Positions 45,763 through 64,000 of a DNA stretch of 64,000 nt are shown one piece after another. Below the pieces are notes generated by a model. That model made no database searches, was not told the origin of the DNA, and was given only the letters and a program-made list of their open reading frames with translations. Source of the stretch: Candidatus Berkelbacteria bacterium. Its GTDB lineage: Bacteria > Patescibacteriota > UBA1384 > JACPKC01. The stretch spans positions 25,051 through 89,050 of the forward strand of contig JACPKC010000006.1 in the NCBI GenBank assembly GCA_016187225.1, written 5' to 3'. A program made the translations under genes and the position numbers. How positions within the stretch are numbered: position 1 is the stretch's first letter; each line of letters opens with the position of its first letter.

Positions 45763-47577
45763 TCACTCAACACTCGCCTTAATTCGACGGACGCCAGCCG
45801 AAGCCGACTGTTCTTTCAGAATCTTGAATTGACCAATCTGACCAGTCTGCGCAACGTGCGGGCCGCCGCAGAATTCTTTTGAAATCGCTTCCCCAAGAGT
45901 TCGACCGATGAAATAGACTTTTACTTGATCTGGATACCGATGGGTAAAAAAGTGAAGCGCGCCGCTTTTTTTTGCCTCATCCAAAGGCAGTTCAACGACT
46001 TGCACTGGAAGGTCTTGAGCGATCACGCCATTTACCCAAGATTCTATATTCCGAATTTGTTCGGGGCTTAATTTTTCCGCATGCGTGAAATCGAAACGCA
46101 GACGTTCCGGGTTGATATCCGAACCTTTTTGCTGAACGTGAGCGCCAAGGACATGCCTAAGCGCCGCTTGTGTAAGGTGAGTTGCGGTATGCAGACGCAA
46201 GACTCGATTTAATTCTTCTTTATTGCCGGCGCGCAGTTCGCCGGTATCCAAAATCAAACCGTGGCCGCCAAACTTTTTCTCAAAGCCGGCGCTCGAAACT
46301 TGTCGATGCGCAGTTAGTAAGTTATCAAAGGCTTGATTGAAAGCTACTCGATTCGGTGTCAATCCGTTCGCAACCAAAATTTCATAACCAAGTTCGGGCG
46401 GCAGAGCATGACTTTGATAAGCTAAAAATGCCAATTTAGCCGCTCCTTCCGATCCGAGTGGAGTCTGCTTGGGTGCTTCTTTTTCCAAAAAGCGCGTCGC
46501 CCGTTCAAGCTGAACACTAAAGTGTTGCTGTTCAGCTAAAATCACATCTTGAATCGACACGCGCGTGAGATGCGGGTAAGAGTCGGCGTAAGTTGAGATG
46601 ACTGCTTCAATTAAGAGTGGCCAATCTGTAAATTCCAACTGACGCGCCGCTTGCACAGCTCGACGAATCAGGCGTCGCAACACGTAACCTCGATCTTTGT
46701 TACTCGGCAAAACACCATCCGCCACCAAGAAAACCGCCGCCCGCATATGATCGGCAAGAACGCGAACGGTTCGATTATCTGATGCGCCTTGAAGAGTTGA
46801 AATTGCCGCTATCGTTGGTTGATAGAGATCGGTCTCGTAGATACTTTCCAACCCATTCACTGTCATTAAAACTCGCTCTAAACCGACACCGGTATCAATA
46901 TTTTTCTGCTTGAGCGGTTCAAAACGATTTTCAGCGACTTTGTTGTATTCCATAAAAACGTTGTTCCAAATTTCCACCCAGTGATCATCGGTTGCCGAGC
47001 CGGGCTGACATTCAACGCCGCACTGCTCCGAATAAATGTGCACAAAAATTTCAGTGGTTGGACCACATGGACCAGTGACATGAACCGGCCCCCACCAATT
47101 GTCTTCTTTCAAGGACACGATGCGAGTGACGCCTAACTTCTGCCAGATCCTTTGCGCATCTTGATCGAGTCCAATCCTTTTAGCTGAATCACCCGCAAAA
47201 ATCGTTGCGGCCAAACGCTCGACTGGGAAACCAAGCGCGCTGGTGACAAATTCAAAACTCCACTCGATAGCTTCCCGTTTGCCGTAATCACCGAGCGACC
47301 AATGTCCAAGCATCTCAAAAAATGTGGCGTGCGTTGCGTCGCCAACCTGCTCAATATCCGTTGTCCGCAAACTGCGTTGGATATTAACAAGTCGAGTGCC
47401 ATCCGGATGTTTTTCGCCCAATAAATAAGGGATAAGCGGATGCATTCCGGCAGTTGTGAAAAGCACAGAAGCGTCTTGAAGCGGCACTAGCGAGGCCTGG
47501 GGAATTTCGCTATGCCCATGAGCGCGATAGAAATCAATAAATTTTCTTCGCAATTCCTGATGAGTCATAGGGCTCAT
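45763..47577 (-). CDS. alaS: Alanyl-tRNA synthetase, short form lacking the C-Ala domain
   Basis: The class II AlaRS catalytic core and the editing domain HxxxH motif (HTATHL) in only 604 aa. Confidence 0.9.
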   Translation of the reverse strand: MSPMTHQELRRKFIDFYRAHGHSEIPQASLVPLQDASVLFTTAGMHPLIPYLLGEKHPDGTRLVNIQRSLRTTDIEQVGDATHATFFEMLGHWSLGDYGKREAIEWSFEFVTSALGFPVERLAATIFAGDSAKRIGLDQDAQRIWQKLGVTRIVSLKEDNWWGPVHVTGPCGPTTEIFVHIYSEQCGVECQPGSATDDHWVEIWNNVFMEYNKVAENRFEPLKQKNIDTGVGLERVLMTVNGLESIYETDLYQPTIAAISTLQGASDNRTVRVLADHMRAAVFLVADGVLPSNKDRGYVLRRLIRRAVQAARQLEFTDWPLLIEAVISTYADSYPHLTRVSIQDVILAEQQHFSVQLERATRFLEKEAPKQTPLGSEGAAKLAFLAYQSHALPPELGYEILVANGLTPNRVAFNQAFDNLLTAHRQVSSAGFEKKFGGHGLILDTGELRAGNKEELNRVLRLHTATHLTQAALRHVLGAHVQQKGSDINPERLRFDFTHAEKLSPEQIRNIESWVNGVIAQDLPVQVVELPLDEAKKSGALHFFTHRYPDQVKVYFIGRTLGEAISKEFCGGPHVAQTGQIGQFKILKEQSASAGVRRIKASVE

Positions 47578-49289: not shown

Positions 49290-50306
49290 CTAGGCCGCCA
49301 CAGGAGTAGGTTGGCCAAGACGCAAAGGAAGAGTCAACAATGACGGCGCAACATGCACGATTTGCCAGCCCAAAGAAGAACGTAAAAACTTGCCCGAGAA
49401 CGAAAAGCCAGCCGCCTTGCGAATTCCACCACCACCAAACAAATTTGCGAGAGCGGCAACGTTAACGGCATCATCTTCGGTCCGCACCGAGGCTTTAATT
49501 CGGCCATTGGGCAGTTCGCACAAAAGAATCGTTGCCCGCGCTTCAGGCACGCAGTTAATCAGATTCACGCAACCGGCCAGGTCTTCGTGATAAGCATTGC
49601 AAGTCGCTAGATCTTCTTCAGTGATAATTGAAGTGACAATTTTAAGACTTGGATGATACTTAATTCGTGAGAGCGCCACCCCCCAAAGCCGCAAAGCCGG
49701 CACGGACTTAAAGCTCGCAACGTTCGCGTTGATTAGATCCAAACGCGCGCCGCGCGCCATGAGTTCTGCGGCCTGACTTAACACAATTGGCGAGGTATTA
49801 GAATGCTTGAACCCGCCGGTATCGTTGTAAAGCCCGGTGAGCAGACAAGTGGCGATGTCGGCATCCAAATTAATATCAAGCGCTTTAATTAGCGGAAAAA
49901 TCAATTCGGCGGCGGATGAAGCGTTGCTGTCGACGTAATTGAGCGAGGCTAATTTATGCAAGTCGTTGCGTTGGTGATGATCGATGTTGATGATTCTTTG
50001 ACGAAAACGGGTAAACTCGCGAATCCGATGCGCGAGGCCGGTGCGTTTAAGATCGCCGCAATCGATAATCACGATTCGATCGTAACTTCCAAGTAAGCAA
50101 TCGCGTTGAATGAGATTCACACCGGGCAAAAAACGAAAAGGATGCGGGATCTCATCCACACAAGTAAGGGTCACGTTTTTACCCAGACGTCGCAGAGTAT
50201 GACCAAGCGCTAGAAGACTGCCTGCGGCATCGCCATCGGCTTGCTCGTGGGTGATCAACAACAAGCGTTCAGCCGCACGAAGAGTGTTGGAAACTAGAGA
50301 GATCAT
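49290..50306 (-). CDS. DHH-family phosphoesterase (NrnA-like)
   Basis: DHH motifs (HEQADGDA..., IDHHQ) with a DHHA1-like C-terminus. Confidence 0.75.
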   Translation of the reverse strand: MISLVSNTLRAAERLLLITHEQADGDAAGSLLALGHTLRRLGKNVTLTCVDEIPHPFRFLPGVNLIQRDCLLGSYDRIVIIDCGDLKRTGLAHRIREFTRFRQRIINIDHHQRNDLHKLASLNYVDSNASSAAELIFPLIKALDINLDADIATCLLTGLYNDTGGFKHSNTSPIVLSQAAELMARGARLDLINANVASFKSVPALRLWGVALSRIKYHPSLKIVTSIITEEDLATCNAYHEDLAGCVNLINCVPEARATILLCELPNGRIKASVRTEDDAVNVAALANLFGGGGIRKAAGFSFSGKFLRSSLGWQIVHVAPSLLTLPLRLGQPTPVAA

Positions 50307-51454: not shown

Positions 51455-51607
51455 TTTTCACCTCCTCTCGCGATGATTAATTACGCGACGGGATTTCCTC
51501 GGGAGTGGCATCAGACTCTCCCGAGGTGAAGGAGTCGCATTAATAACCGTGAGAGAAGCCCGACCCCGTTCGACTCGCTCTGCGAGTTCGCTCGGGGTCG
51601 GAAAAAA

Positions 51608-52240
51608 TCACCATGGCCAGTATTTCGCCCGCTTCTGACTCTTCATCAGAAGCGGGCGACTGGGCGCCCAACCACACTCCTTACTGCCCATGGGGCATAG
51701 GGTGTAGTGGGCACCCGAGCCGCAGGCGCACTCGGCCGCCTGGGCCAGAGCCTCGAGAACTTCAGGTCGGTTTCTGAAGTTCCCGAGAACTTCAGGTCGG
51801 TCGAGTTGGCGAACCTCGACGGGTCCGCTGATCGCCTCGAAAAAAAATTCGAGGTAGACCGATTCCCGCTGGCTAAGCGGGTCAGTCACCCCCTCGTACT
51901 GAAGGGTCCAACCGGCCACGCCTTGCAAGGCAACGAGCCTCGCGCCGGAGGTCGAGGAGGTCCAGGCGAAGGACGTGACGTCCTCCTCCAGATACCCCCT
52001 CCAACCAGAGTGCTCCCCAGGCACTCGATGGGCGACGGGAGCGGTCGGAGGCATTACCTCCCGCCCGCCCAAAGAATTTTCCGCCATATAGACGAGCCCC
52101 TCGCGGGGTGCCGCCTCGGGTTCGCAGTCCTCCCCCCGTGGCATTTGGTTGGTTAGCCCGAAGGCCAACGAAACCAAATTTTCCCACGAGGTTTCCCCCG
52201 CGAAAATGTTTTGCTGGGTGGCGCTGGTGAGGGTCGTCAT
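51608..52240 (-). CDS. Hypothetical protein (210 aa) with an internal 19-bp tandem duplication
   Basis: An RBS GGGAGGG sits upstream of the ATG. The duplication ccgagaacttcaggtcggt x2 (51758-51810) encodes RPEVLGNFRNRPEVLE. Confidence 0.5.
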   Translation of the reverse strand: MTTLTSATQQNIFAGETSWENLVSLAFGLTNQMPRGEDCEPEAAPREGLVYMAENSLGGREVMPPTAPVAHRVPGEHSGWRGYLEEDVTSFAWTSSTSGARLVALQGVAGWTLQYEGVTDPLSQRESVYLEFFFEAISGPVEVRQLDRPEVLGNFRNRPEVLEALAQAAECACGSGAHYTLCPMGSKECGWAPSRPLLMKSQKRAKYWPW

Positions 52241-52482
52241 GTTGACGCCCTCCCTTCTTGCCCATTTTTCGATGGGCGGATCGTGGGTTTTTAACGTGTT
52301 TTACCACACGGATGACAAAGCTAACTCATCCCCATTGGGCATTAGTTAGCAGGGCATCACCCTGCTGCTATTTTAGGACCCGAGCACAGAGTCCTCGCTC
52401 TTCACTTCGATCCTCGTCGGATTGACGAAAAGCGAAGAAAGAGCCCTGCCTCACCGGTCGAAACCGACGAAGCAGGATGGGA

Positions 52483-52860
52483 TCAGTCGTCGGGCTGGCG
52501 ACGCGCGTCTGCCCCGAGTTCATCGAACTCGAGAACTAGACGTCTGACCCGTCGGAAACGAACAAACCGGTAGTACCGGCCGTTCACCTCCCAATCCGAT
52601 TCCTCCGGGTGCGCCACGATCTCGGCTTCCGACCAGAGTGGTCGAAGTCCCAGATCGACCATTCGGGCGAGAACAGAGAGCGGGACGACGGTAATCACAT
52701 CGTCATATCCACCCTCGCGGACTCGTCGCACGATCGTCTCGGCATTGTCGAACGGGCGCGAATCGCGCTCAACCCTCACATCCGCCCCAAACAACCGGCG
52801 CAAAGCGCCGAGCTGGACGGGATTCATCCCGTGCCGGCTGATCCAAAGGATTCGTTTCAT
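52483..52860 (-). CDS. Hypothetical protein (about 125 aa; start MKRILWISRHG...)
   Basis: An RBS GGAAAGGAGGGGG sits upstream of the internal ATG at 52860. The longer track ORF extends upstream without an RBS. Confidence 0.45.
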   Translation of the reverse strand: MKRILWISRHGMNPVQLGALRRLFGADVRVERDSRPFDNAETIVRRVREGGYDDVITVVPLSVLARMVDLGLRPLWSEAEIVAHPEESDWEVNGRYYRFVRFRRVRRLVLEFDELGADARRQPDD

Positions 52861-52877
52861 CGAATCCCCCTCCTTTC

Positions 52878-53066
52878 CTAGTTGATCCCGACGGTCTGCC
52901 CCGAGTATTGCGCGGCGATATACTGCGCATCCTCGAAATCGACCGGCTCGGACAAAATTTGGAACTCGCCCGGGTTTCGCGGGTCGGCAAACTCGGTCCA
53001 CAGCACCAGATAATTCCGGTCCGTGGTCGGCTGTCCTGACTCCAGCTCAACGATATGGATGGCCAT
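52878..53066 (-). CDS. Hypothetical 62-aa acidic protein
   Basis: It is preceded by the conserved repeated leader ...ATCGCGAGAGGAGGTGATCAC-ATG. Confidence 0.45.
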   Translation of the reverse strand: MAIHIVELESGQPTTDRNYLVLWTEFADPRNPGEFQILSEPVDFEDAQYIAAQYSGQTVGIN

Positions 53067-53195
53067 GTGATCACCTCCTCTCGCGATAATTGATTACGCA
53101 ACAACCCTTAAGTCGCGCGCTGATCGATAACCGTGAGAGAAGCCCGACCCCACAATCCACCGAAGCGAACGTGGGGTCGGGAAAAACAACTACTC
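53063..53195 (-). promoter_or_regulatory. Repeated intergenic module: terminator-like hairpin (cccgacccc...ggggtcggg), a conserved cttctctcacggttat box, and the leader gcgtaatNaatNatcgcgagaggaggtg-ATG. A second copy lies at 51455..51612.
   Basis: Two copies have the same order of conserved blocks and a variable spacer. Each directly precedes a minus-strand small gene. Confidence 0.6.
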
Positions 53196-53429
53196 GTCGA
53201 CCGGAAAGACGAAATACTGGAATACGCTGAAACTAGTTGCCGCGGCAACCGTTCGCGCATCCTCCAATGCTTCATCCACCGTATCGTGCGTGCGAGTCAG
53301 AAAACAAACGTGCCCGTCGTAGCGATAAAGTTTTGCGCCCAACCGCTCGTACTGAACAACATCGTCAACTGGCTCGCAGTAGTTGTTCTCGACAAAGCCA
53401 CCGCGGTATTTCATTTTTTTCTCCTCCAT
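53190..53429 (-). CDS. Hypothetical 79-aa protein
   Basis: An RBS GGAGGAGAAAAAAATG. It lies downstream of the 53564..54151 gene in the same orientation. Confidence 0.4.
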   Translation of the reverse strand: MEEKKMKYRGGFVENNYCEPVDDVVQYERLGAKLYRYDGHVCFLTRTHDTVDEALEDARTVAAATSFSVFQYFVFPVDE

Positions 53430-53563
53430 TCTTTTGATGGGGCAGTCGCTATCAGCGAGATGTCCATCAAAGTTCAGAGGCGCGGTGGCTTAAAAAACTG
53501 TTGGCCAGCCTTCCGAGCGGCTGGCAAAAAAAGTGAACCTCGCTCGGACGAGGGAGATGAGGG

Positions 53564-54151
53564 CTAGATTTGCGGCATGCGCCGCTCATCTAGCCACTCC
53601 CACTCGCTGGGGAGTGAGTCCCTCTCGGGGTAGGGGGTGGTATCGTCCCACCCCTGATTCTGCCACGCCGCCGTGTCGGCCCGCCGCTTGACGCGGCCGG
53701 TCATGAGGGCCTCGTCCTCCGGGGCCGAACCGGAGGATATCAGTCCCCCCTGGTAACCCCGCCACATCTGGTGGCGGAGATACTTGTCCCCCGCCAGGAT
53801 GGGTCCAAGCGAGGAATAGCACCAGGGATGCCGCGAGAGATACTCTCGCAGGAACCCCTCGAGTCCGACCTCGAACTCCAGGCGCCGAAGCGCCCGGCTC
53901 GCCGTCGCCCGCAGTTCGTGCGGGAGGGACTCCTCCTCCCCCACAAAGGGGAAGTAGGGTCCGTGTGCCGTATCTGGCACCTCCCCCAGGGCCCCAGACA
54001 ATTTGTAGTACGGGACCTGGTTGACCCGCACTCCCAGGATGGCCGGCGAGGCGATCCATCCTTGGTGCTTTCCGTCCACCTGGACGGAGTAGAGCCCGGC
54101 GACCTCGCCGGACTCTACCAGGGTCAGGGTGCTGTTCTGGGTGCTCTGCAT
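53564..54151 (-). CDS. Hypothetical 195-aa protein (MQSTQNSTLTLVESGE...) sharing a 5' module with the gene at 58185..58625
   Basis: The start is at the ATG inside the conserved roughly 135-bp promoter/leader repeat (RBS GGAGGTG). The first roughly 10 codons are homologous to the paralogous cassette. Confidence 0.5.
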   Translation of the reverse strand: MQSTQNSTLTLVESGEVAGLYSVQVDGKHQGWIASPAILGVRVNQVPYYKLSGALGEVPDTAHGPYFPFVGEEESLPHELRATASRALRRLEFEVGLEGFLREYLSRHPWCYSSLGPILAGDKYLRHQMWRGYQGGLISSGSAPEDEALMTGRVKRRADTAAWQNQGWDDTTPYPERDSLPSEWEWLDERRMPQI

Positions 54152-54266
54152 GGCAGGCACACCTCCATTCTTAAACTCCCGCTTGCGCGGGGCGATGGAA
54201 GGACTATAAATAGTCAGCCCGTCGCCCAACATAAACGAGTTATTTCCGCTCATCCTCGATTCCTCA
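54130..54266 (-). promoter_or_regulatory. Repeated promoter/leader module, about 135 bp, copy 1; copy 2 lies at 58614..58749
   Basis: The two copies are near-identical, for example gtgctctgcatggcaggcac...cccgcttgcgcggggcgatggaaggactataaatagtcagccc...cataaacgag...catcctcgattcctcatcggtttcga. The module contains a GCAA-tetraloop hairpin cccgc-gcaa-gcggg in the leader and the start codon of the downstream gene. Confidence 0.7.
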
Positions 54267-54408
54267 TCGGTTTCGATGAAAGTCCGAGGTAACTCAAAAA
54301 AAACTTTTGGCCAGCCGCGATGCGGCGGTGAAGCTTGATTAGCATCAAACCTCGCCGCCACAACCCGAGTTTGCAGAATCCCTGTTAATTTCCTATACTT
54401 GAGTTATT

Positions 54409-54648
54409 ATGCCTAATGTCTTCATTCCCAAAGAATATGAACGGACTCGCGAGCTCGTCGCCATCCCTAAAAAGAAGTATGAGGCTTATCTTGAGGCGCA
54501 ACGCGCTCAAGCACGACCAGCCAAACATGCCCAATCCAAACGAGATCAAGAGCTGACGGAGGTACTGGAAATTATCCGCAGAGGTAAAGCCGACTACCGC
54601 GCCGGTAGAATTCGGACTGTCCAATCGCTTTCGGAACTCATGGAGTAA
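54409..54648 (+). CDS. Type II antitoxin (RelB/ParD/Phd-like)
   Basis: A 79-aa protein immediately upstream of a RelE/ParE-like toxin gene, with a 5-nt gap. A sigma70-like promoter TTGCAG-17-TATACT lies upstream. Confidence 0.6.
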   Translation: MPNVFIPKEYERTRELVAIPKKKYEAYLEAQRAQARPAKHAQSKRDQELTEVLEIIRRGKADYRAGRIRTVQSLSELME

Positions 54649-54653
54649 ATCCA

Positions 54654-54926
54654 GTGCGTCGACCGATCGCAACTATCGATGTGACGCCAGATTTTGAAAA
54701 GGCTTTTCGTCGCCTGCCAGTTCGTATCCAGCGTTTGGCCACCAAGAAAACAAGTTGGTTTCGCGATAATGCACACGATTCCAGGCTAAAAACTCATAAG
54801 TTGAGCGGCCAACTCAACGAACACTGGTCGTTTTCCGTAAATCGCGAGTACCGGATTCTATTTGAGTTCACGAGTAATACCACCGCACTCTTCCACTCAA
54901 TTGGCACCCACGCCATCTATCGTTGA
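54654..54926 (+). CDS. Type II toxin, RelE/ParE superfamily
   Basis: A 90-aa protein with the motif HKLSGQLNEHWSFSVNREYRILFEF, characteristic of RelE/ParE-fold toxins. Confidence 0.65.
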   Translation: MRRPIATIDVTPDFEKAFRRLPVRIQRLATKKTSWFRDNAHDSRLKTHKLSGQLNEHWSFSVNREYRILFEFTSNTTALFHSIGTHAIYR

Positions 54927-55294
54927 AGTGCGTCTGCAACCCGTAAGACCGATCCGGATCAATCCCCAGGCGCCAAAACTCGATGTGAGTGGAGAGATGC
55001 TTCCATCGCTGGTCACAACTATTCGTTGCGTCAAGTAAAAAGATCCCTTCCTCCGATTTTAGGGGAAGAGAAGAAGCGGGGCGGGAGGCAAGCGTGCCTG
55101 CGACCGCCCCAAGCTTTGGCCGGGTTCCGATCGATTGATCGGAAGCGTTAAGACGGGAGCAATCCTTCGGGGTGTTCGCTCAACCGTCTTGCCGGCCTAC
55201 CCGCAAAAGTTGCGGGTAGGGTTGGATTCTCCGCCGTCGGCGGATTCTTACTCTCGCGCCACCAACCAAGGCGCGGGAGGGCAGTGTTTATGCT

Positions 55295-55510
55295 AGACCA
55301 GTCTCGCAAAGAGACAGTCGGCTTCATGCTCGACGTCCTCTCCCGAGTCTGATCTAGACTCATTTCCACAGCAGAGACACTGTCTGTACTCAAACAGTGT
55401 GCCTCCACTGGAGAAATTGTGCAGTTCGTTGTTTTTGATCCACTGCACAATTTCTCTTTTCAGCTCGGGATCACTTTCGATCGCCCGAGCAAGATTGGAG
55501 AAAAGCATTC
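55295..55510 (-). CDS. Small 71-aa Cys-containing protein (…YRQCLCCGNESR…)
   Basis: An RBS GGGAGGAGGGAGAAAGA-ATG. It contains a perfect 12-bp inverted repeat within the CDS. Confidence 0.35.
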
Positions 55511-56194
55511 TTTCTCCCTCCTCCCACCCTCGCGGGTAGGATGCCTGGTTGGCCGCGGGTGCGGGCCAGGGCGGGCAGATTCCCAATTCTTCCGTGATCG
55601 TGGGTTTCGACCACGCTCTGCCAGTCCGTGGAGGACTAGCATCCCGTTCTTTGAACGAGGAGCGTCCCCACGGAGCCTGGTGGCTCGGAAGAATTGGGTT
55701 TCCCCTTGTTCGTCCACTCACCAACTGCCAGCGGTGAGAGACAGGGCGGTTCGCCCCTCCAAGCGCGCGAAGACTAACTGGTCGAAGCGCGCGCTAGAGC
55801 CGAGTTTTGGTTACTTGCTTACTCGGGTGCAAGGTTGTCTTTATTCTCTGGGCGTTGCTGCCGGCAGACACATTTTTTTTTACGAGAGTGTCCACTCGTT
55901 CCAATTATTACTAATTGGATCGTTCCCTGCGCTGACCGGGCAAGGAGACCGGACTGATTTATGTTTTAGAAGCAACGCCAGTGAACGTTGCTCAACCGCG
56001 CGCGTGCCTTCATTAAAGAGGCCGCTTCTCACGGATAACTATGGTCACCCCTTAAAACCGCTCCGACAGTTTTAAGGGGATCTTTTACGCCACCCGACGT
56101 TGCCATTATGGTTTAGGCAACTCTCCCCGCCGACCTCAACGCTACAACGCGCTTAGGGCCAACGGTTGACGGGTGGGAGCCTGTCGTGGCACCC

Positions 56195-56602
56195 CTATGC
56201 GAGAAGGGGCAGAAGCACCTGCCGACGCTCCTGGTCAAATGTGTCCTTTAATAGACACCGTTTCGACCAGGCTTTAGATGGTTCAGCATTCAGGTACTGA
56301 ACCATCTGTCTGTACGCCATCTTGTCCGACGACGCACAGAACGCCCGTGCTCCCCCCTCGAGCTGACGGCCAACCTCCTCCTGGAGGTCCCAGATTGACG
56401 AAAGATTTTCCCATCCTTCGCCTCCAAGACTCTCGTCCAGGAAGAGCACGGCGTACTGGCGTTCAGCCAGCGCCTGCCGCGTCTCGGCCGCCGTCGTAGG
56501 AGCCACGACGTCCACGCCAACCGGCAGGACAGCAAGGAGCCGAGAGAGGAACATCTCTCGCCACTCCTCGCAGTCCTCGATCAGCAGGACGCTTTGGTTC
56601 AT
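56195..56602 (-). CDS. Standalone response-regulator receiver-like domain protein (degenerate)
   Basis: LLIEDCEE...VLFLDESL places acidic residues at CheY-like positions. The RBS is GGAGGTGAAAAG-ATG. A perfect 11-bp inverted repeat lies within the CDS. Confidence 0.45.
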   Translation of the reverse strand: MNQSVLLIEDCEEWREMFLSRLLAVLPVGVDVVAPTTAAETRQALAERQYAVLFLDESLGGEGWENLSSIWDLQEEVGRQLEGGARAFCASSDKMAYRQMVQYLNAEPSKAWSKRCLLKDTFDQERRQVLLPLLA

Positions 56603-56929
56603 CTTTTCACCTCCTTCGTTGGACTCAATTTTGATTTACCGATCAAATCCAACGAGGAAATGAATGCGCTCCTTAAGAACAAATCTGCTGCAAAAGTTCA
56701 ACCATGAATCAAACTCCAGTCACTATGGCTCTAATGACGTGCTCGCCCATCATCTTAACGACCTAACCCATTTCCGCACCGCGATCGCCCGCTGGCTGAC
56801 GAAACAAGTTGACTGATCAAGCCTTTCGAGACTTCGTTGACGATCTCCGATTCACGATTTTATAAGTTAATAAATCATGAACCCGAGTCGATCTCCCTCT
56901 ACCTGCTTGCACAGGCGAGGGAGAAAAAT

Positions 56930-57226
56930 CTACATCGCTGCCCGAACCCGGTCGGCAGCTAGTCGCTCTCTACGCCACCTCTCCTCGAGGTACTCGGCGT
57001 ACCAAGCGAGCAACTGCTCGGTGGTGCCGTCGAGAGCGGCGTTAACCGCCTCGAGCTGGGCGGCTTCTTTCTCCAGGTCGAGGCCGTCGAGCGGCTCAAG
57101 CTGGAGAAAGTACGCCGCTTCACGAATGGCGGCGTCCTTGGCGCGGCGCACCACGGCCGGAACCATGGCGTTCTTGGCCTCCGCCTCGGCGTACCGGCCC
57201 TCCCGGTTGTCGCGTTCGGTCGCCAT
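56930..57226 (-). CDS. Hypothetical 98-aa acidic/helical protein
   Basis: An RBS GGAAGGGAGG sits upstream of the ATG. Confidence 0.4.
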   Translation of the reverse strand: MATERDNREGRYAEAEAKNAMVPAVVRRAKDAAIREAAYFLQLEPLDGLDLEKEAAQLEAVNAALDGTTEQLLAWYAEYLEERWRRERLAADRVRAAM

Positions 57227-57301
57227 TTTGAGCGACCTCCCTTCCTTAATTGGTATTCAGGGAACCACCCTGCTGCTATTTTAGGACCCGAGCACAGAGT
57301 C

Positions 57302-57351
57302 CTCGCTCTTCACTTCGTCTTTCGATGAATCGAAAAGCGAAGAAAGAGCCC
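57302..57351. repeat. 50-bp repeat, left copy, flanking the vapBC cassette (ctcgctcttcacttcgtctttcgatgaatcgaaaagcgaagaaagagccc)
   Basis: It is identical 50/50 to the copy at 58098..58147. It forms an imperfect palindrome with bulges. A variant copy with a different 17-nt centre lies at 52398..52447. Copies 52358.. and 57266.. also share a 36-bp 5' extension. Confidence 0.8.
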
Positions 57352-57427
57352 GGCTCTCCGGTTGATTTGAAGATCATAGTTGGAATCAAGAGTGAAAGAT
57401 TGGTAAGATAATTGACGAAAGGAACTG

Positions 57428-57730
57428 ATGCCCAAAGTAATCAGTAAACCAAAAATCCGCGTTCCTGATGCGTACCAGGGTTATCAACGTTTGGTGGCGA
57501 TTTCGGAAACAGATTACCAGCGCCTGGTTGACAAGATGCGACCTGCCAAAACCGATCCGGCCGATCGCGCCACTGTCTGGAAAGCAGTGGAAGGCATCTG
57601 GGCTGACCGAGACGATCTTGATCCAATCCGTTATCAACGGCAATTACGGAACGAGTGGAATAAACGCGAAAAACGCCAGTATCGCTTGGGCGGGCGGGCA
57701 AAAAATTCGACGCACGCTAAGCGCTCATGA
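57428..57730 (+). CDS. vapB: VapB-like antitoxin
   Basis: A 100-aa protein that overlaps the downstream PIN toxin gene by 4 nt. Its GC is clearly lower than the surrounding island. Confidence 0.55.
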   Translation: MPKVISKPKIRVPDAYQGYQRLVAISETDYQRLVDKMRPAKTDPADRATVWKAVEGIWADRDDLDPIRYQRQLRNEWNKREKRQYRLGGRAKNSTHAKRS

Positions 57731-58092
57731 CGCTCGACACCAATATCATCATCACGCTTCTCAAAAACGAAGCGTCTTTGGTGAAATGGTTCCAGCAACT
57801 GCAGCGCGACCAGGTTATTTTCATATCCTCGATCACGCGAGCTGAACTTTTATCAGAATCAAAGTCAACCGCTAGGCAACTTGCTCGGATCGCACGATTT
57901 TTGAATTCCTTCCATTCTGTGCCACTAGATGACAAAATTGCCGATCATGTCGCAAGCTTGCGGCGCGCCTACTCTAAACTGCATGTTCCTGATGCCGCCG
58001 TGGCCGCCACTGCAATCATCATGGGCACGCCACTCGCCAGTCGCGACAAGGTATTTCGAAAGATTAAGGAACTCGATTTGATTGTGCCATAG
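57727..58092 (+). CDS. vapC: VapC PIN-domain toxin
   Basis: A PIN domain with a conserved acidic residue in MTLDTNIII near the N-terminus and conserved Asp/Glu further on, in a 121-aa protein. Confidence 0.7.
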   Translation: MTLDTNIIITLLKNEASLVKWFQQLQRDQVIFISSITRAELLSESKSTARQLARIARFLNSFHSVPLDDKIADHVASLRRAYSKLHVPDAAVAATAIIMGTPLASRDKVFRKIKELDLIVP

Positions 58093-58097
58093 GCTTT

Positions 58098-58147
58098 CTC
58101 GCTCTTCACTTCGTCTTTCGATGAATCGAAAAGCGAAGAAAGAGCCC
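58098..58147. repeat. 50-bp repeat, right copy, flanking the vapBC cassette
   Basis: See the left copy. It is an exact direct repeat. Confidence 0.8.
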
Positions 58148-58184
58148 CCCGCTCGAAATGTTTTGCGAGACGGGGGGACAACGT

Positions 58185-58625
58185 TTAGACAGGCGCCTCG
58201 AGCGGGCGCTGGACGAGGGCTTTGCGCACCTCGACCCCGACGACTTCGTAGCCGCCGAAGGCGAGGATGTCACGCCCTCGCTCATCCTGGCCGGTCACGA
58301 TCACCCGCCCGTCCTCGCCCCGCTTGAAGACCTGGCGCAGGACATGAATGCCCTGCTCGGCCAGCCCCTCGACGAGGGCGATCATGACCGGCTCGGGCCC
58401 GCCGGCCTCGACCGCCACCACCTCCCTCTCCTCGGTGGCCTCGATCATGTCGATGACCGCCTGGACGGCGGCCACCGGATCGGCGCCATAAGGCACGTCC
58501 TCGGTGACCACCTCGAGGTCGTCACCGAAGACGACCGCGAGGGCCGCTCGACGGTCCTCACTCAACGGGTGACGCATCACCCGCAGGATTACCGGGGTCA
58601 GGATGGTGTTTTCGGTGCTCTGCAT
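58185..58625 (-). CDS. Hypothetical 146-aa protein (MQSTENTILTPV...) carrying the shared 5' module
   Basis: It has the same promoter/leader/first codons as the gene at 53564..54151. Confidence 0.5.
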   Translation of the reverse strand: MQSTENTILTPVILRVMRHPLSEDRRAALAVVFGDDLEVVTEDVPYGADPVAAVQAVIDMIEATEEREVVAVEAGGPEPVMIALVEGLAEQGIHVLRQVFKRGEDGRVIVTGQDERGRDILAFGGYEVVGVEVRKALVQRPLEAPV

Positions 58626-58872
58626 GGCAGGCACCTCCTCTCATGAGCTCCCGCTTGCGCGGGGCGATGGAAGGACTATAAATAGTCAGCCCAGCGCCCA
58701 ACATAAACGAGTCAGTTCACACTCATCCTCGATTCCTCATCGGTTTCGACCCGTTCTAAACGAAGTCGAAGAATGAGAGCCCGAGGTGAGCCCCCGACCG
58801 CATTCAGCAATGGGTCAGGGTCAAGCAGTCCGGCGCAAGTAAGCTACCTGGCCGGACTGAAGTCATGAGGCG

Positions 58873-61800
58873 CTAGCGGCGGTTGAACCGCGCTTTGAGC
58901 GCCTCGATCTGGGCCTGGGCGGTGGCCGCGTCTTCGGCAGAAGGTTCTGCCGGCGCGGCTTCGCGCGCCTTAGCCCGTTTCTTGCTCTGCCCCGATCCAG
59001 CCGATTCGCTGGCGCGAACCTCCGGCTCGGGGACTTGCGGTTTGTCTTCCGGGAAGGGCGGCTCGAGCCGCACTAGCGTGAGACGGAAGGAGCCAGTGTT
59101 GACCAACTCCCTTACCTCGCTCACGTAGTACGACTTGCCCGCAACCGGCTCCGGTGAGCGGCGGTCGAGCACGAACTTGGCGTGCTTCGATCCGGCCTCC
59201 CACTGGAGTTCTCCGGTTTTGGGGTGTCGCCCCTGGCGGAACGAGAGCTTGAACCATGCACGCTGGGAGACCATCTCCTCAGCGCGCTGGTAATCAGCCT
59301 CGTACCGCTCCCGATTCCTGGCCGCCCACGCCTCGTCCGTAAGAATGACTCCCGTGAAGTCATTCCGAACGAGTGGGCAGGCGCAGTCCGTCGGGAACCA
59401 CTCGGCGGCAACAGTGCCATCGATGAAAATTTTCACCGTGGCCACCGCATCCCACCGTTTATGGGTCCCTTCCGGCCGCACCTCGGCCAGGACAGCTTCG
59501 TCGTACTGGGTCAGCCCACTGTTTGACTGGGCCCAGACCACCCGGTTGATCGGGTGGAGGTTGGTCTGGCGGCAAACCAAACGGGTTTGACCCGTCTGGT
59601 CGCCCCACTCGGTATGCTCTTCAACCATCGGGTGGGAGCAAACCGGGCAGGTACCAAGGAGCGTGCGCAGGCGATCGTTCGCCGATCGCTTCAGCTCCTC
59701 TTTCTGCCGCTTGGCGTCCTCGGCCTTCTTTTGGAGCTCGGCCGTTTTCACGGAGAGCTCCTCAAAGAGCGCGCACGTCGACACGAAGTCGTGGCGCTTA
59801 AAGGCTTCGGTCGCCTCAGTCGCAAGGCGCTCAACCTCCCTCTCCTCCTTATAGGAGAGCAAACCATCGCGCTCATAGGTCGCGATCGTTTCCTGCTCCT
59901 CCCGAATGAGGGCGAGGGCGGTCTCCGCCTCGGGGCGCTTGGTCTCGTTGGTCTGGTGGTGAGCCAGCGCCAACTCGACCCGCGCCCGGACAGTCGCGAG
60001 CAGGTCGAGCGCCTTCTTCGGCTCCGGGGTGCGGCTGTAATAGCCGTCGCTCGTCCGGAGCAAGGCGCGCGCCTGCTCGATCTTTGCCGAGAGTCCCTCC
60101 GACTCGTACCAGCTGTCTTTCCCCGCTTCACGCGAGGTCAGACCGTAAGCCTGGTACTCGTCGAGGTTCACCCCGGCAAGCAGTTGGGCGACCGCGTCGG
60201 CTTCAGCTTGCGCTTCGGCCACGTAGCGGTCGCGATTTCTGCGTTCGTCTTCCTCGGCATCGAGCTTGGCCTTGGCTTTGATGGCCTCGGCCTGGCTCGT
60301 CTGCGCCTCCTCGCAAGTGCGGTACCATTTCTGGTACCAGCTCGCGTAGTAGGCGCGGAACGCCGGGTAGGCGAACGCCCCGGTCACGGCGTCATAGATC
60401 TCGGGTTCGGCGACCGCGGGGAGCGGCTCCAAACCCTTGACCACGAGTGTCGTGTCGGGGTGGTTGGTCGTGAACGCCTGCCAGGCCAACTCCAGCCGTT
60501 GCGCCTCGATCTGCTCGCGCAGGGTCGAGACGTCGGTGCCAGAGATGGCGGTGTAGCCCTTGTCCTGCAGCTTGAGCGTGTAGCTCGCGCCGCTCGGAAT
60601 GAGATGCTCCACCACTGCCTGGTCGGCGTTCTGGATGGTCGCCACCGACACCTGGATGGTGACGGTCTGCTTCTTCTCGCTCGAGTAGTACGACGCGCTG
60701 TCGTACTTATACTCGACGTTGCAGACCTCGCCGCCGATCAGCACGGTGTCGGGCGCCTGCTCGCGGATGTACGTTGCTTCCTCACCGGAAACAAACGTCG
60801 CCCGCGCCAGGCCAAAGTCGATGCCCTCGATCGCCGGATCGTCCATCCGGTAGATCTCGCCGAGTCGCTCGGCATAGATCTTGGCCGCCTCACTTTGAGT
60901 GAGCGGCCCCCGAACGGCGCCCCCGGACTTGGCTTGAAGTTCGGTCAGCTCGGCATTGACTGCCTGGCCAACTTCCCCCAGCCAAACTCGGGCAAACTGG
61001 TCGGCCAAGGCTTTGGTCGCCTCGGCGTTTCTCTGGGCGGCCACCACCGTCGTTGCGACTTCGGTGCCGTTGAACACCAGCACCTCGTCACAGACGACCT
61101 CGCCTCGCTCCTCACTCCACCGATAGTTCCGGCAGAGATTGGAGGCGAGGTGAGGCGCCACCTCGGCCAGCCAAGTCGGGTCAACCGCCGAGGCATTTTT
61201 GATCAGGCGGAGCGTCATTGAACGCCCTCGCCGATCTGTAATGCCAAGGTCGAACGGTTGGCCGACCAGCCACTCGGGCAAACTCGAGCGCTTCATCAAG
61301 CAGCTCTCCTTTGCCAGCTCTCGTTCGCCGTTGCCGCCGTTCTGGTATCGACCACTATAGGAAGAGCTCTTCCTATACAAATGGTCAACCAACCCAGTCG
61401 AGCAGGCCTTGAGAGTGTCTTGCTGAGAGCCGAAGCTCCCAAACTCAACATCCCCGACCCCCCGCACGGCGTCAGCAAGCGTGGGAATCTGGGCGTAGGC
61501 ACGCTTGATGTTCATGCCCACAATCCCAGCTTCCCGCCAGTCAACCTGCTTGAGGCTCCGATCCGCCTCCCGCAGGGCCCGTTTGACCTGCTCTCTCCGG
61601 CTCTCGCGCTGTTTGCGCTTGAGGTTCTTGTTAAAAACCTCTTGCCGCGGCGCGGTGCCGAGCAGGTGCTCAATCGTGTTCTGGCCAATCAAGGCGACCA
61701 GAACCGCCAGTTGGGCAAGTAGATCGCTCTCAGTTTCCTTGACACCGAAAAACGATCGCCACTCGCCACTTCTGGCAACGATGTCGCCGGCGTCAAGGCA

Positions 61801-63108
61801 AGCCGCGATGACAATCACGTCATCCACGACTCCCCGTTGCGCCGCTTCTAGGATCATCCGGGCAGAGTGCACCTCGATCGGCAAGCGATTAATCGCATAG
61901 CCGACTTCGGTCACTTTCCCGGCCTGGTCGATGGCGCCGAGACCTTTGAGCGCCTTCTTCGCATCAGCAATGACCTGGCGGTCAAGCTGATGGAAGAACG
62001 GCAGCTCGGCTGCGTCGTACCCGGCAATGGCCAAACGGAGCACCGTCTGGTCAAGCCGGGTGCGCATGATCTCGGGCACCGGGTAGCCGGGCCGCTCGGC
62101 GCTGGGGCAGTGGTCGATGTAGACCCCTTCGCCCAAGCGGCCGGTTCGGCCTCGGCGCTGTTGGCCGCGAGCTTTGGCGATCGGCTTGAGGTACAAGCCT
62201 TCTACGCCACTGACCAGCTCGACGCGTCGTTCCATGCCGGAGTCGACAACGGCGAGCCGGCGCCCGGGACTCGGCACTAGCGTACGGCCGGTTTCCAAGG
62301 CGTTGGTTGAAACCACCACCTTGGGCCGGTCGTACCGCTTGTAGGCGCGGTCTTTTTCCTCGCGCTTGAGCTTCCCGTAAAACGGGATCAGCTCGGCATC
62401 GAGGCTTTGGAGCCGCGCAACAGTCGCCACGATCTCGGCCTCGCCCGGCTGGAAGCAGAGGACGTCAAAGCCCTCAGCGACCAACTTGGCAATGTCAGCC
62501 TCGATCGTGGCACCAGCCGGTCGGTCGACGATTGGGAACTGCCTCCCCGGCACCTTGAACACCGGCGCGTTCCCGCGCTTGCGCGCGAGCTCGTCCGAGG
62601 CCAAAGTAGCCGAGAGGACCACGATCTTTTTAAAGACCGAGTTCCCTTCCTGGAGGTGCTTCCACGCCCAGGCCTCCAGAGTGGATTGGTTCGTATTCCA
62701 CTCGTGGAGCTCGTCGATGATGAGGATGTCGAACCGGTTGTGACCGGCCAACTCCCTCACCAGCGCGAGACCGTCGGTGCAGAACAGAATTGACGTCTCC
62801 GCCGAATCCTGCCTGCCCTTGCCGGTCCGGTAGCCGACGGTCGTGCCAAACGGCACGCCCATGAGCTGGGCGACATACTCGCTCGTGCCGATGACCGTTT
62901 CGATCAACGGCTCGGTTACAAGTACGCTGTTACCCAGCTCATGGTACCACTGGGGCACCATTGTCGACTTGCCGGAGCCGGTTTCGGCCTCGACAATCAT
63001 GTAGGGCGCGGCGCATCCAATGATCGCGGCTTTGAAGGCCTCGATCGGGAGCGCATCACGCCCGTTGCTGGTCGGGGAGCTGTTATTCACCATGCCATTC
63101 TTGGTCAT
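58873..63108 (-). CDS. HrpA-like DEAH/RHA-family ATP-dependent helicase (1411 aa) with a long C-terminal extension containing a Cys4 zinc-finger-like motif
   Basis: Motif I ETGSGKST, motif II DELHE, motif III SAT and motif VI QRRGRTGR. An HA2-like region (ELPFFHQLD...LGAID) follows. The C-terminus is a coiled coil with CPVCSHP...C...CAC and an Ala/Glu/Lys-rich tail. Confidence 0.75.
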   Translation of the reverse strand: MTKNGMVNNSSPTSNGRDALPIEAFKAAIIGCAAPYMIVEAETGSGKSTMVPQWYHELGNSVLVTEPLIETVIGTSEYVAQLMGVPFGTTVGYRTGKGRQDSAETSILFCTDGLALVRELAGHNRFDILIIDELHEWNTNQSTLEAWAWKHLQEGNSVFKKIVVLSATLASDELARKRGNAPVFKVPGRQFPIVDRPAGATIEADIAKLVAEGFDVLCFQPGEAEIVATVARLQSLDAELIPFYGKLKREEKDRAYKRYDRPKVVVSTNALETGRTLVPSPGRRLAVVDSGMERRVELVSGVEGLYLKPIAKARGQQRRGRTGRLGEGVYIDHCPSAERPGYPVPEIMRTRLDQTVLRLAIAGYDAAELPFFHQLDRQVIADAKKALKGLGAIDQAGKVTEVGYAINRLPIEVHSARMILEAAQRGVVDDVIVIAACLDAGDIVARSGEWRSFFGVKETESDLLAQLAVLVALIGQNTIEHLLGTAPRQEVFNKNLKRKQRESRREQVKRALREADRSLKQVDWREAGIVGMNIKRAYAQIPTLADAVRGVGDVEFGSFGSQQDTLKACSTGLVDHLYRKSSSYSGRYQNGGNGERELAKESCLMKRSSLPEWLVGQPFDLGITDRRGRSMTLRLIKNASAVDPTWLAEVAPHLASNLCRNYRWSEERGEVVCDEVLVFNGTEVATTVVAAQRNAEATKALADQFARVWLGEVGQAVNAELTELQAKSGGAVRGPLTQSEAAKIYAERLGEIYRMDDPAIEGIDFGLARATFVSGEEATYIREQAPDTVLIGGEVCNVEYKYDSASYYSSEKKQTVTIQVSVATIQNADQAVVEHLIPSGASYTLKLQDKGYTAISGTDVSTLREQIEAQRLELAWQAFTTNHPDTTLVVKGLEPLPAVAEPEIYDAVTGAFAYPAFRAYYASWYQKWYRTCEEAQTSQAEAIKAKAKLDAEEDERRNRDRYVAEAQAEADAVAQLLAGVNLDEYQAYGLTSREAGKDSWYESEGLSAKIEQARALLRTSDGYYSRTPEPKKALDLLATVRARVELALAHHQTNETKRPEAETALALIREEQETIATYERDGLLSYKEEREVERLATEATEAFKRHDFVSTCALFEELSVKTAELQKKAEDAKRQKEELKRSANDRLRTLLGTCPVCSHPMVEEHTEWGDQTGQTRLVCRQTNLHPINRVVWAQSNSGLTQYDEAVLAEVRPEGTHKRWDAVATVKIFIDGTVAAEWFPTDCACPLVRNDFTGVILTDEAWAARNRERYEADYQRAEEMVSQRAWFKLSFRQGRHPKTGELQWEAGSKHAKFVLDRRSPEPVAGKSYYVSEVRELVNTGSFRLTLVRLEPPFPEDKPQVPEPEVRASESAGSGQSKKRAKAREAAPAEPSAEDAATAQAQIEALKARFNRR

Positions 63109-63147
63109 GGTAAATTTCCCTTTCGGGAAAGCCGTCTAGCCTTTCGG

Positions 63148-63879
63148 CTAGGCGGCCAACAGCTCCTCTCGGAGATCGGCCGCCGCCCAAGCGACTTGCG
63201 CTCGGGCGCGACCCTGCTCGAACGGCGACCTTGCAGCCAGCCGTTCGGCGAGGGCCGACTCAAGGGAGTCGGCGGCGTCATGCCACCGACTCACGCTCGA
63301 GTCCCGGGCGACCAGGAGCAGAAGCTCCGGTCGCCGGGAGGCGACCACGGTTTTGCGCCAGAGCCCCTGGCACACGGGGGCAGAAGCGGCCAACGCCTCA
63401 CGGCGAGCCGCTTCTGCCTTTTGTTGGCGCGCCCACTCGCCTTTGGGCAGGGCGCGGCAATTCTGCCGCTCCTGCTTGCGGGCGCGGCGAGCCTCCCGGG
63501 CGGCGCGGTCGCGGGCCACCTTGGCCAGCACCGCCGCCCGGGTCACCTGACCGCGGACAGGTTGGGCTTTCGCCCGTTCCTGCCGCCGGTTGGCCCGCCG
63601 GCGCGCCGTCCGCCACGACCGCCCCTCGCTGGGGACGGCATGGAAAGTTTTTCTGCCACAAAGTGGCTGCGGCACCCAGAGCTGGTCGCCCATCAGAGCG
63701 GCCAGCTCCCCGGCCGCGAGGCGAATGCCCCGCGACCGAAAAAACTTCTTCGCCCGGGTGCGAGAGACGAACTCTCGACGGCCCGGGCAGGTCATGACAC
63801 CATTTTCCCGGGTGATGCCAAACCCGGTGGCGAGCACGAAGCTCGCCAGGAAAACGAGAACCAGCCCAATAATGAGCAT
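63148..63879 (-). CDS. Hypothetical membrane-anchored Arg-rich protein (243 aa)
   Basis: An RBS GGAAGGAGGAAAACGAG-ATG. It has an N-terminal TM helix and a highly basic (R/A/E-rich) remainder. Confidence 0.45.
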   Translation of the reverse strand: MLIIGLVLVFLASFVLATGFGITRENGVMTCPGRREFVSRTRAKKFFRSRGIRLAAGELAALMGDQLWVPQPLCGRKTFHAVPSEGRSWRTARRRANRRQERAKAQPVRGQVTRAAVLAKVARDRAAREARRARKQERQNCRALPKGEWARQQKAEAARREALAASAPVCQGLWRKTVVASRRPELLLLVARDSSVSRWHDAADSLESALAERLAARSPFEQGRARAQVAWAAADLREELLAA

Positions 63880-64000
63880 CTCGTTTTCCTCCTTCCCCCG
63901 CTTTGCGGGTTTTTCAACCGCACGGGGGATTCACCGGCTGGCGAATGCCCACCCCGAACAGCGACGCCTTTCACGTCTCCCTCTGCGCCACATTTTTCCT

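Follow-up and report, generated by a model that had tools for sequence, protein, structure and literature searches.

A putative HrpA-branch DEAH/RHA RNA helicase of Candidatus Berkelbacteria and the structured leader RNA of its family

Background

Near the end of a 64,000 nucleotide (nt) stretch of a Candidatus Berkelbacteria genome (NCBI GenBank assembly GCA_016187225.1, contig JACPKC010000006.1, positions 25,051 to 89,050, forward strand; "the window" below means this whole stretch) lies a large helicase gene, at 58873-63108 on the minus strand. It is a GC-rich gene inside a lower-GC genome and therefore has the look of an island, which raises the question whether it is mobile cargo, with a part in phage defence, replication or transfer as an earlier note on this DNA had proposed, or a resident of the chromosome, and what a resident helicase of this kind might do. 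We hold with about even confidence that it encodes a resident, lineage-specific 3'→5' RNA helicase of the HrpA branch of the DEAH/RHA group, belonging to a family that is widespread in the Patescibacteria (candidate phyla radiation, CPR). The gene is taken as resident because relatives occupy at least 257 species loci, TrmB and GNAT genes recur beside them, and the G+C content at their third codon positions (GC3) tracks that of the host. The protein appears to have the full HrpA-type build, with RecA1, RecA2, winged-helix, ratchet and OB/connector domains followed by a region related to the HrpA C-terminal region (CTR). Judged from the sequence, the novelty would be that of an HrpA-family helicase whose C-terminal extension is specific to the lineage and whose RNA-contact motifs are altered, its function being predicted by homology; the main interest lies in an undescribed leader RNA, its ribozyme partners and the GC3 offset.

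The helicase core

The open reading frame (ORF), taken from the ORF list and its translation, starts with ATG and encodes a 1411 amino acid (aa) HrpA-like DExH helicase that is 100% identical to HYW32_01710 (P0001), an NCBI protein from a Candidatus Berkelbacteria metagenome-assembled genome (MAG) encoded on a 161-kb contig. The DEAH/RHA superfamily-2 core signature, namely a Walker A motif, a DExH motif II, SAT and QRxGRxGR, is spread across two RecA domains. RecA1 (aa 36-172, window 62593-63003; this and all following domains are on the minus strand) contains motif I GSGKS at aa 44, a divergent motif Ia (TEPLIETVIG), motif II DELHEW at aa 132 and motif III SAT at aa 166, and is matched by Pfam DEAD with E = 6.9e-8, which passes the cut-off. 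RecA2 (aa 211-326, 62131-62478) carries motif V TNALETGRT and motif VI QRRGRTGR at aa 317; it aligns with HrpA in the PDB and scores 21.2 bits with Pfam Helicase_C, just under the cut-off of 23.5. The HA2 winged-helix and ratchet part (aa 387-451, 61756-61950) is covered by HA2_N (aa 387-411, 19.6 bits, under the cut-off of 21) and HA2_C (aa 415-451, 23.4 bits, passing), and past aa 451 there are no Pfam matches on the helicase. The succession of winged helix, ratchet and OB is completed by a family-conserved OB/connector (aa ~452-700, 61009-61755), which has invariant columns up to F679, is covered by the family-profile alignment to HrpA 74-903 given below and, where the gene is split, closes the separate core ORF.

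The best PDB sequence matches are all E. coli HrpA (7akp, 8po6 and 9ggr, E = 2e-49 over aa 16-443), and the top NCBIfam matches are HrpA models, whose alignment extends in relatives to HrpA profile position 883. The 1411-aa ORF, the DELHEW motif II and the HA2 segment described in the earlier note are all present by motif position and Pfam match, and the HrpA-like DEAH/RHA character that it gave to the N-terminus is upheld for about 450 aa by the PDB matches.

The C-terminal region

The C-terminal ~900 aa, previously described as coiled-coil rich, are by profile and fold probably in large part an HrpA-type C-terminal region, and it is the last ~260 aa that are without an HrpA counterpart. A profile of 34 family members aligns with HrpA residues 74-903 in one continuous stretch (E = 2.4e-129) that passes the OB/connector and reaches the first alpha+beta domain (alpha+beta-1) of the HrpA CTR, and HrpA outscores every eukaryotic DEAH protein against this profile. 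The AlphaFold2 model of aa 701-1411 has a mean predicted local distance difference test score (pLDDT) of 81.6, with values above 90 over the first ~440 residues. Within it, aa 701-1150 (59659-61008; pLDDT mostly >90) are modelled as a bundle of helices, a pair of alpha+beta domains and a long, helical domain resembling the Hook, so that what was called "coiled-coil rich" is in the model a confidently predicted helical domain together with the alpha+beta pair. When the model of aa 701-1411 was compared with the PDB by Foldseek, the single significant match was HrpA in a disome complex (9gft_B, E = 5e-4, probability 0.99 over 550 columns, TM-scores 0.17 and 0.10). The CTR of E. coli HrpA (alpha+beta-1, alpha+beta-2 and Hook) docks on the 30S heads of stalled and collided ribosomes and is needed for ribosome binding and splitting, and HrpA splits collided ribosomes in an ATP-dependent reaction (PMC11419001). 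Two modules had been thought possible in this region: DUF3418 (PF11898) is among the precomputed annotations of the relatives P0009 and P0058, and on the window protein Pfam shows none, the relation to the HrpA CTR coming there from profile and fold; DUF1998/MZB has no Pfam match on the helicase at E ≤ 0.1.

The family-specific extension of ~260 residues is made up of a zinc-ribbon-like segment, an OB-like barrel, a disordered linker and a terminal peptide. Its cysteines are arranged as C1154-x2-C1157-x21-C1179-x62-C1242-x-C1244, which corrects the spacing CPVCSHP-x17-C-x37-CAC given before. The four-cysteine MZB domain of MrfA/DUF1998 helicases is not matched here, and the fourth and fifth cysteines are not kept in the closest homologues, the CAC pair of C1242/C1244 being DTR in the two closest. 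The zinc-ribbon-like segment C1154-x2-C1157 ... C1179-x5-H1185 (59554-59649), recognized from cysteine positions and homologue conservation, belongs to a pattern of CPxC and then C-x5-H or C-x3-C that recurs in a subset of homologues, and its predicted fold has low confidence (pLDDT 55-70). It is followed by a helix and small beta-barrel (aa 1258-1352, 59053-59337, pLDDT 93-96); Foldseek searches with the last 271 aa gave sub-threshold matches only, all of them OB-fold proteins (Rpo18, uS12, RPA and ExoVII; E about 0.1, probability up to 0.99, ~78 columns), and the modelled barrel is probably OB-like. The Ala/Lys/Glu-rich tail reported earlier is present, and after a disordered Ala/Lys/Glu/Pro linker the protein ends with a conserved amphipathic peptide (..AQAQIEALKARFNRR; 58876-58938). 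Most family members have this peptide as ..LxxLKAKF(G/N)(K/R) or ..DLSxLFGG.. (on the second ORF where the gene is split, see below), and it looks like a docking motif for a partner. When only the C-terminal 711 aa were used to look for homologues, nothing was returned at E ≤ 0.001, probably because the word-based candidate list was swamped by low-complexity helical proteins, and full-length matches were used in its place.

Family distribution and gene structure

Among 8000 candidates scored, 582 database proteins were homologous at E ≤ 1e-5; the best 120 of these 582 are 780-1550 aa long and come from Patescibacteria wherever the source names a taxon. At least 257 species loci (individual related loci are given L numbers below) were confirmed when one genome for each GTDB species was scanned with the motifs as a guide; they are mostly in Patescibacteria, and outside that group there are a coherent set of MAGs of Clostridia and isolates of two actinomycetes, Actinoallomurus and Spirillospora. 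The neighbourhood in Spirillospora, with a sortase and LysE, is uninformative. Residues H135, E136, W137 and N138 do not vary among 20 family members, and conservation is unbroken to about aa 680. In many relatives the gene consists of two ORFs, a ~650-aa core, whose end corresponds to about aa 715 of the window protein, and a CTR protein of ~490-700 aa; examples are L021, L023, L029, L159, L161, L006 and L008, in which the second ORF corresponds to window aa ~715-1411.

The core of the window protein is of a subtype with TEPLIETVIG, DELHEW and TNALETGRT at motifs Ia, II and V, and the other, more canonical subtype has TQPRRLAA, DEVHEW and TNVAQTSVT. L002:5039-13203 and L003:3-9373 are 91.6% identical in nucleotide sequence for 3.9 kb upstream and 80% identical in the 2.8 kb at the 3' end of the gene, and the 5' 1.4 kb between these similar flanks, which encodes the helicase core, is of different subtypes in the two; cores have therefore been exchanged through recombination.

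Third-position composition

The helicase gene has a GC3 of 0.79, as against about 0.46 in host genes (0.43-0.51 for mreB, alaS, pbp2 and others). Its GC3 is higher than the mean of the distant ORFs in 65 of 67 loci, by 0.167 on average (Wilcoxon p = 1.5e-12, indicative only, the loci being phylogenetically non-independent), and higher than that of every distant ORF in 53 of the 67. Over these same 67 loci, to which the same non-independence applies, helicase GC3 rises with host GC3 with a slope of 0.97, an intercept of +0.18 and r = 0.83. G3 and C3 are equally raised, and a base-specific bias such as A-depletion was rejected as the source of the high GC3 because the two rise alike. Canonical hrpA on an Acinetobacter contig has no such offset (GC3 0.335, with 0.24-0.41 in its neighbours). 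A constant offset above the composition of the host agrees with long residence and a gene-specific bias, which could come from selection on the mRNA or from biased gene conversion at a recombining locus, and repeated import from one GC-rich pool fits less well. The largest offsets (the window, L002, L007, L024 and L029) could be due to recent transfer. Family-wide as it is, the offset offers a clean case of gene-specific composition that could separate mRNA selection from biased gene conversion.

A structured leader RNA and its ribozyme partners

A conserved string upstream of helicase starts was used to scan metagenomes, and 34 distinct copies of a leader were found, each 54-98 nt before the start of a helicase-core or CTR ORF, with the exception of L022, where a 114-aa ORF follows; L023:8395-8515 and L023:10580-10693 are examples in related loci. 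In split systems each ORF has its own leader copy where this was checked (L023, L029, L159 and L161). The leader is ~135 nt long with an invariant GGGUGGG core. From its 5' end it runs through stem P1 (GGGCAaCCCUGCCC, of which compensatory variants occur), a hairpin that varies, GGAAGUC as the opening of hairpin P3, GGCCGAGCAGGG-UGGGuuu, a further hairpin and finally aCCCCUaGCUCG, the last abutting the Shine-Dalgarno (SD) sequence AGGAG. Covariation backs P1 and P3, with 27 double-change cells compared to 7.4 in shuffled alignments (0 of 500 shuffles reach 27), and it collapses in slid controls. The long-range helix could not covary in the search set, where the pattern fixed one of its strands; divergent copies do have compensatory versions of it, CAAGC/GCUUG in L061 and CAGGC/GUCUG in L033.

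At ≥ 50 bits a covariance model recovers the leader from 19 loci (21 copies), on the coding strand and beside the start codon, and it gives weaker, correctly placed matches in L030, L060, L001, L045, L002, L038, L079, L009 and the Spirillospora locus L040; every match of the model is on the coding strand and abuts a start codon. Among the 4227 families of Rfam 15 none matched the leader at E ≤ 1 when whole loci were searched or at E ≤ 10 with the isolated leader. The leader is undescribed in Rfam, well conserved, covarying and tied to a single protein family, and is a candidate for a new cis-regulatory class.

At the window locus the covariance model and comparison with L002 and L003 identify the 3' two-thirds of a divergent leader copy, with the GGGUGGG core and an SD GGAGG, at 63880-64000 on the minus strand; its 5' hairpin lies past the window end, at about 64017-64033. 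On the extended contig the copy is L001:2651-2774 (26.2 bits, E = 4e-4), and the partial match within the window is at 63923-63954. This copy precedes a 243-aa ORF, not the helicase. We note a further leader-like string at window ~55508-55575 (minus strand; CCGCCCUGGCCCGCACC ... GGGUGGGAGGAGGGAGAAAGAAUG), which resembles the 5' and core parts of the locus leader and stands before a small ORF.

Directly 5' of the leader, type III hammerhead ribozymes (RF00008) with a full consensus core are present in five loci: L021:9482-9537 (49.1 bits, cut-off 48.5), L159:6556-6610 (minus strand; 48.2 bits, just below the cut-off), L106:4185-4239 (minus strand; 35.1 bits), L088:4494-4548 (32.4 bits) and L163:6878-6960 (minus strand; 27.9 bits). 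None was found by RF00008 at threshold in the window or in L001. Most related loci have other structured elements at the hammerhead position. One of these, about 100 nt upstream of leader P1 in L161, L159, L023, L097 and L019, has the form hairpin-ACUUUAUUCGG-long hairpin-UCGAUAGAG, with covarying stems and without an Rfam match, and a third type of element (..GAGAGACGAUnGGnGGAGUAUCG..) is found in L036, L037, L112 and L171. The interchange of hammerheads with other elements at one position marks sites at which to seek new self-cleaving motifs.

The hairpin pair and the 243-aa ORF

Between the window leader and the helicase lies an orphan 243-aa ORF (63148-63879, minus strand, from the ORF list), which has an N-terminal hydrophobic helix, is Arg/Ala-rich and has GC1/2/3 values of 0.74/0.57/0.78. 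It has no match in Pfam, PHROGs or PADLOC and no relative in the related loci. From its stop to the helicase ATG the sequence folds as two adjacent GAAA-tetraloop hairpins (63116-63157, minus strand), which take up the 39 nt spacer before the ATG; the predicted minimum free energy of the pair as RNA is -26.7 kcal/mol (z = -3.69), equalled by none of 200 shuffles. The earlier note had described these hairpins, which are indeed there and stable, but the first is longer than it claimed, GGCCG-C-CUAGCC-GAAA-GGCUAG-A-CGGCU, and has the UAG stop of the 243-aa ORF inside it. The pair was sought in 193 related loci and found at the window locus alone, and the window shows no enrichment of the motif CCGAAAGG. 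Some leaders have a GAAA-capped P2 (e.g. L037), and derivation of the window hairpins from it was rejected because a complete leader already stands farther upstream at the window locus and nothing like the hairpin pair is seen at other loci. No free SD precedes the helicase AUG, the sole purine-rich stretch, GGGAA, being the 3' arm of hairpin 2. Since there is no free SD and the hairpins overlap the upstream stop, the helicase is most likely translated by coupling to the 243-aa ORF.

Genomic neighbourhood

The first 51 kb of the window are an ordinary small-genome chromosome of about 47% G+C, with mreB, mreC, PBP2, yceG, a short alaS, a DHH phosphoesterase and tRNAs. From 51500 to 64000 the composition rises to 0.54-0.65, against about 0.47 in the other 51 kb, and the ORFs of this GC-rich stretch, which includes the helicase, have no Pfam, PHROGs or PADLOC match. 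An independent Logan assembly continues for 3.5 kb past the window end, where it encodes a GNAT acetyltransferase and two unknown ORFs and no nuclease, methyltransferase or integrase; the partner nucleases or methyltransferases that had been suggested beyond 64 kb are thus absent from the 3.5 kb examined. The other end of this Logan contig is at window ~58663, about 210 nt beyond the stop codon of the helicase, and therefore the junction between the GC-rich and 47% parts is supported by the MAG contig alone.

Database searches lend no support to a role in defence, replication or transfer on a mobile island. PADLOC-DB v2 returned nothing for the helicase or nine neighbouring ORFs; PHROGs likewise gave no match for helicase or neighbours. 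Collections of phage and plasmid proteins hold nothing closer than ~30% identity to hrpA/hrpB, a near-identity DNA search of window 40-64 kb against plasmids and phages gave no match, and a scan of IMG/VR found no relative of the helicase. When the ORFs of the window island were compared with the related loci by tblastn and tblastx, relatives were found only for the GNAT gene and a small ORF (58185-58634, minus strand), and the content of the window island is therefore not a conserved system.

Other neighbours do recur, in many Patescibacteria. A divergently oriented TrmB-type regulator is upstream in 18 loci (19 ORFs, L032 having a downstream copy in addition), a large GNAT-domain protein is near the helicase in 13 loci, and small GNAT proteins and ORFs with DHH motifs are also found repeatedly; a GNAT gene is upstream in the window locus, L041, L007, L006, L012 and L088. 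Compared as a test of vertical descent, helicase and TrmB identities across the 18 loci are uncorrelated (Spearman -0.05), the identities being saturated. The upstream GC-rich ORFs of other loci, which have DHH or DxDG motifs, were considered as kin of the window DHH gene (49290-50306) and rejected, as they are unrelated to it and have no Pfam match. We note that a P-loop NTPase with a Csx3-like domain (PF09620, 26.1 bits; L048:5177-6391) is upstream of the helicase in six loci, its relatives being in L008, L028, L036, L049 and L054, and that L004 has bAvd and a HEPN/MNT pair near the helicase.

Some further features of these sequences are recorded here. A 96-nt tRNA-Ser(aga) predicted by ARAGORN within a GC-rich ORF (window 53708-53803, minus strand) falls below the gathering score of the Rfam tRNA model and is probably spurious or degenerate. 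A cobalamin riboswitch (RF00174; 2074-2200, minus strand; 31.9 bits, just over the gathering score) lies upstream of a large ORF that runs off the window start. The alanyl-tRNA synthetase (45763-47577, minus strand) has only 604 aa, comprising the catalytic and SAD domains. A LOOT RNA (RF03000, 82 bits) is at L159:9337-9456 on the plus strand, about 2.8 kb upstream of the helicase operon and on the opposite strand to it.

Role of the helicase and alternative explanations

The helicase is most likely associated with ribosomes or mRNA, as far as our comparisons indicate. By homology with E. coli HrpA, the motor would engage mRNA while the CTR would dock on the small subunits of collided ribosomes, and stalled ribosomes would be split as they are by HrpA. 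The additional zinc ribbon, OB-like barrel and terminal peptide may add contacts with RNA or a partner. The leader, whose 3' helix abuts the SD sequence, would control expression post-transcriptionally, and at the window locus translation of the helicase would be coupled to the 243-aa ORF.

Several points weigh against a resident HrpA counterpart of this kind. The cut-offs of the HrpA equivalog models are far missed (TIGR01967 198.9 against 722.75 bits, PRK11131 183.5 against 1400 bits), which bears out the divergence from housekeeping HrpA stressed in the earlier note. Pfam finds neither OB_NTP_bind nor DUF3418 on the window helicase itself. The RNA-contacting motifs of the window subtype are altered, Ia from TQPRRLAA to TEPLIETVIG and V from TNVAQTSVT to TNALETGRT. 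The low TM-scores of the 9gft_B match, which are expected because the domains are flexibly linked, show for the model that domains are held in common and their arrangement is not. Association of family members with ribosomes is itself deduced from homology with HrpA. The members in Actinoallomurus and Spirillospora may mean that the family is a paralogue with a different substrate, and a plain housekeeping role predicts neither the GC3 excess nor the mosaic exchange of cores. The earlier note had named an HrpA C-terminus in a syntenic housekeeping gene of a high-GC bacterium as the finding that would overturn its proposal, and this is largely what is seen here, except that the host is not high-GC.

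The protein might be HrpA-like and yet take no part in ribosome rescue, acting instead to remodel or process structured RNAs as Prp43/DHX15, Prp22 or Dhr1 do; candidate substrates would be transcripts from its own locus that bear the ribozyme and leader, or precursors of CPR rRNA. Against the family profile the eukaryotic DEAH helicases of splicing and ribosome biogenesis come close to HrpA (E = 1e-117 to 1e-105), the ORFs are directly preceded by hammerheads and by no fewer than two further conserved structured elements, the OB-like and zinc-ribbon-like modules suggest added RNA binding, and it is the RNA-binding motifs Ia and V that are altered. We consider this unlikely all the same, since the ribosome-docking CTR of HrpA is the one structure to which the C-terminal region is significantly related, the sequence profile extends into that CTR, cis-acting ribozymes do not need a helicase, and nothing ties the protein to rRNA genes. 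A more elaborate and less probable reading makes the operon a self-regulating RNA module. Its transcript would be trimmed in cis by a hammerhead or another, unclassified element at the same position; the pseudoknot-capable leader, of a new class, would sense the helicase or CTR protein or a ribosome- or tRNA-derived signal; and the lasting G/C excess at silent sites would be selected for making the long mRNA structured or slowly decoded, and so a substrate of the collision-sensing helicase that it encodes, giving a homeostatic feedback.

That the helicase is cargo of an integrative element and works with effectors encoded beside it, against phage or in the transfer of DNA, would account for the 12-kb stretch of 54-65% G+C beside a 47% chromosome, its ORFs without Pfam matches, a tRNA-Leu about 2 kb from the compositional boundary, the swapped core in L002 and L003 (whose islands are otherwise 80-92% identical), the defence-flavoured neighbours of some loci (HEPN/MNT and bAvd in L004, the P-loop and Csx3-like protein in L048) and the lack of correlation between helicase and TrmB identities. 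It has to be set against the blank PADLOC and PHROGs results for the helicase and its nine neighbours, the failure to find an integrase, nuclease or methyltransferase nearby, the absence of relatives from IMG/VR and the distance (~30% identity to hrpA/hrpB) of those in phage and plasmid collections. The window island ORFs are not kept beside the helicase in other loci, whereas chromosomal neighbours (the TrmB-type regulator and GNAT) recur, and a GC3 offset that is family-wide and scales with the host (slope 0.97) is a better fit to long residence than to repeated recent import. There is no sign of a phage-defence or transfer protein, and the mosaicism and occasional defence-like neighbours keep such a reading at a low probability. 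It is far less probable still that the GC-rich region is an artefact of assembly or binning and the helicase comes from another, GC-rich organism. The independent Logan assembly, made from the same sample, does span only window 58663-66683 and does not enter the 47% part; GC-rich helicases between low-GC flanks are nevertheless found on one contig in many independent assemblies (L002, L004, L007, L024, L029 and L034), helicases with low-GC flanks also occur on contigs of 0.4-0.9 Mb, and the GC3 offset is present in 65 of 67 loci.

If the resident family is indeed the Patescibacteria counterpart of HrpA, it shows collision rescue in reduced genomes with unusual ribosomes, in a form in which the ribosome-docking half may be a separate polypeptide and zinc-ribbon, OB-like and terminal-peptide modules have been added.

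Comparison with known systems

E. coli HrpA (6zww, 9gft/9ggr) has RecA1, RecA2, winged helix, ratchet, OB, connector and CTR in the same order as the family described here and is similar in length, about 1300 compared to 1411 aa. It differs in that the identity of the cores is about 30%, motif II is DEAHER in HrpA and DE(V/L)HEWN in the family, motifs Ia and V are changed in the window subtype, and the family adds the ~260-aa C-terminal extension (zinc-ribbon-like segment, OB-like barrel and terminal peptide). The family gene is often two ORFs with a structured leader in front, and its GC3 is above the host level, unlike that of canonical hrpA of Acinetobacter. HrpB (about 810 aa) shares the helicase core, HA2 and OB (PDB E = 1e-25, TIGR01970 172.6 bits), but scores below HrpA and has nothing equivalent to the long HrpA-type CTR matched by the aa 701-1150 model. 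The eukaryotic helicases Prp43/DHX15, Prp22/DHX8, Prp16 and Prp2 align in core, winged helix, ratchet and OB over about 590 profile positions, but have no similarity past the OB, and their partners (G-patch proteins and the spliceosome) are not found in bacteria.

In layout the leader, as we read it, recalls the antiterminator or antisequestrator element of the T-box: an AGGG/CCCU helix is broken by a ~7-nt bulge starting with UGGN and followed by a closing hairpin directly before the SD. The likeness is one of topology only: RF00230 does not match the leader, no Stem I or specifier features are recognised in it, and the genes behind it are helicase ORFs rather than aminoacyl-tRNA or amino-acid genes.

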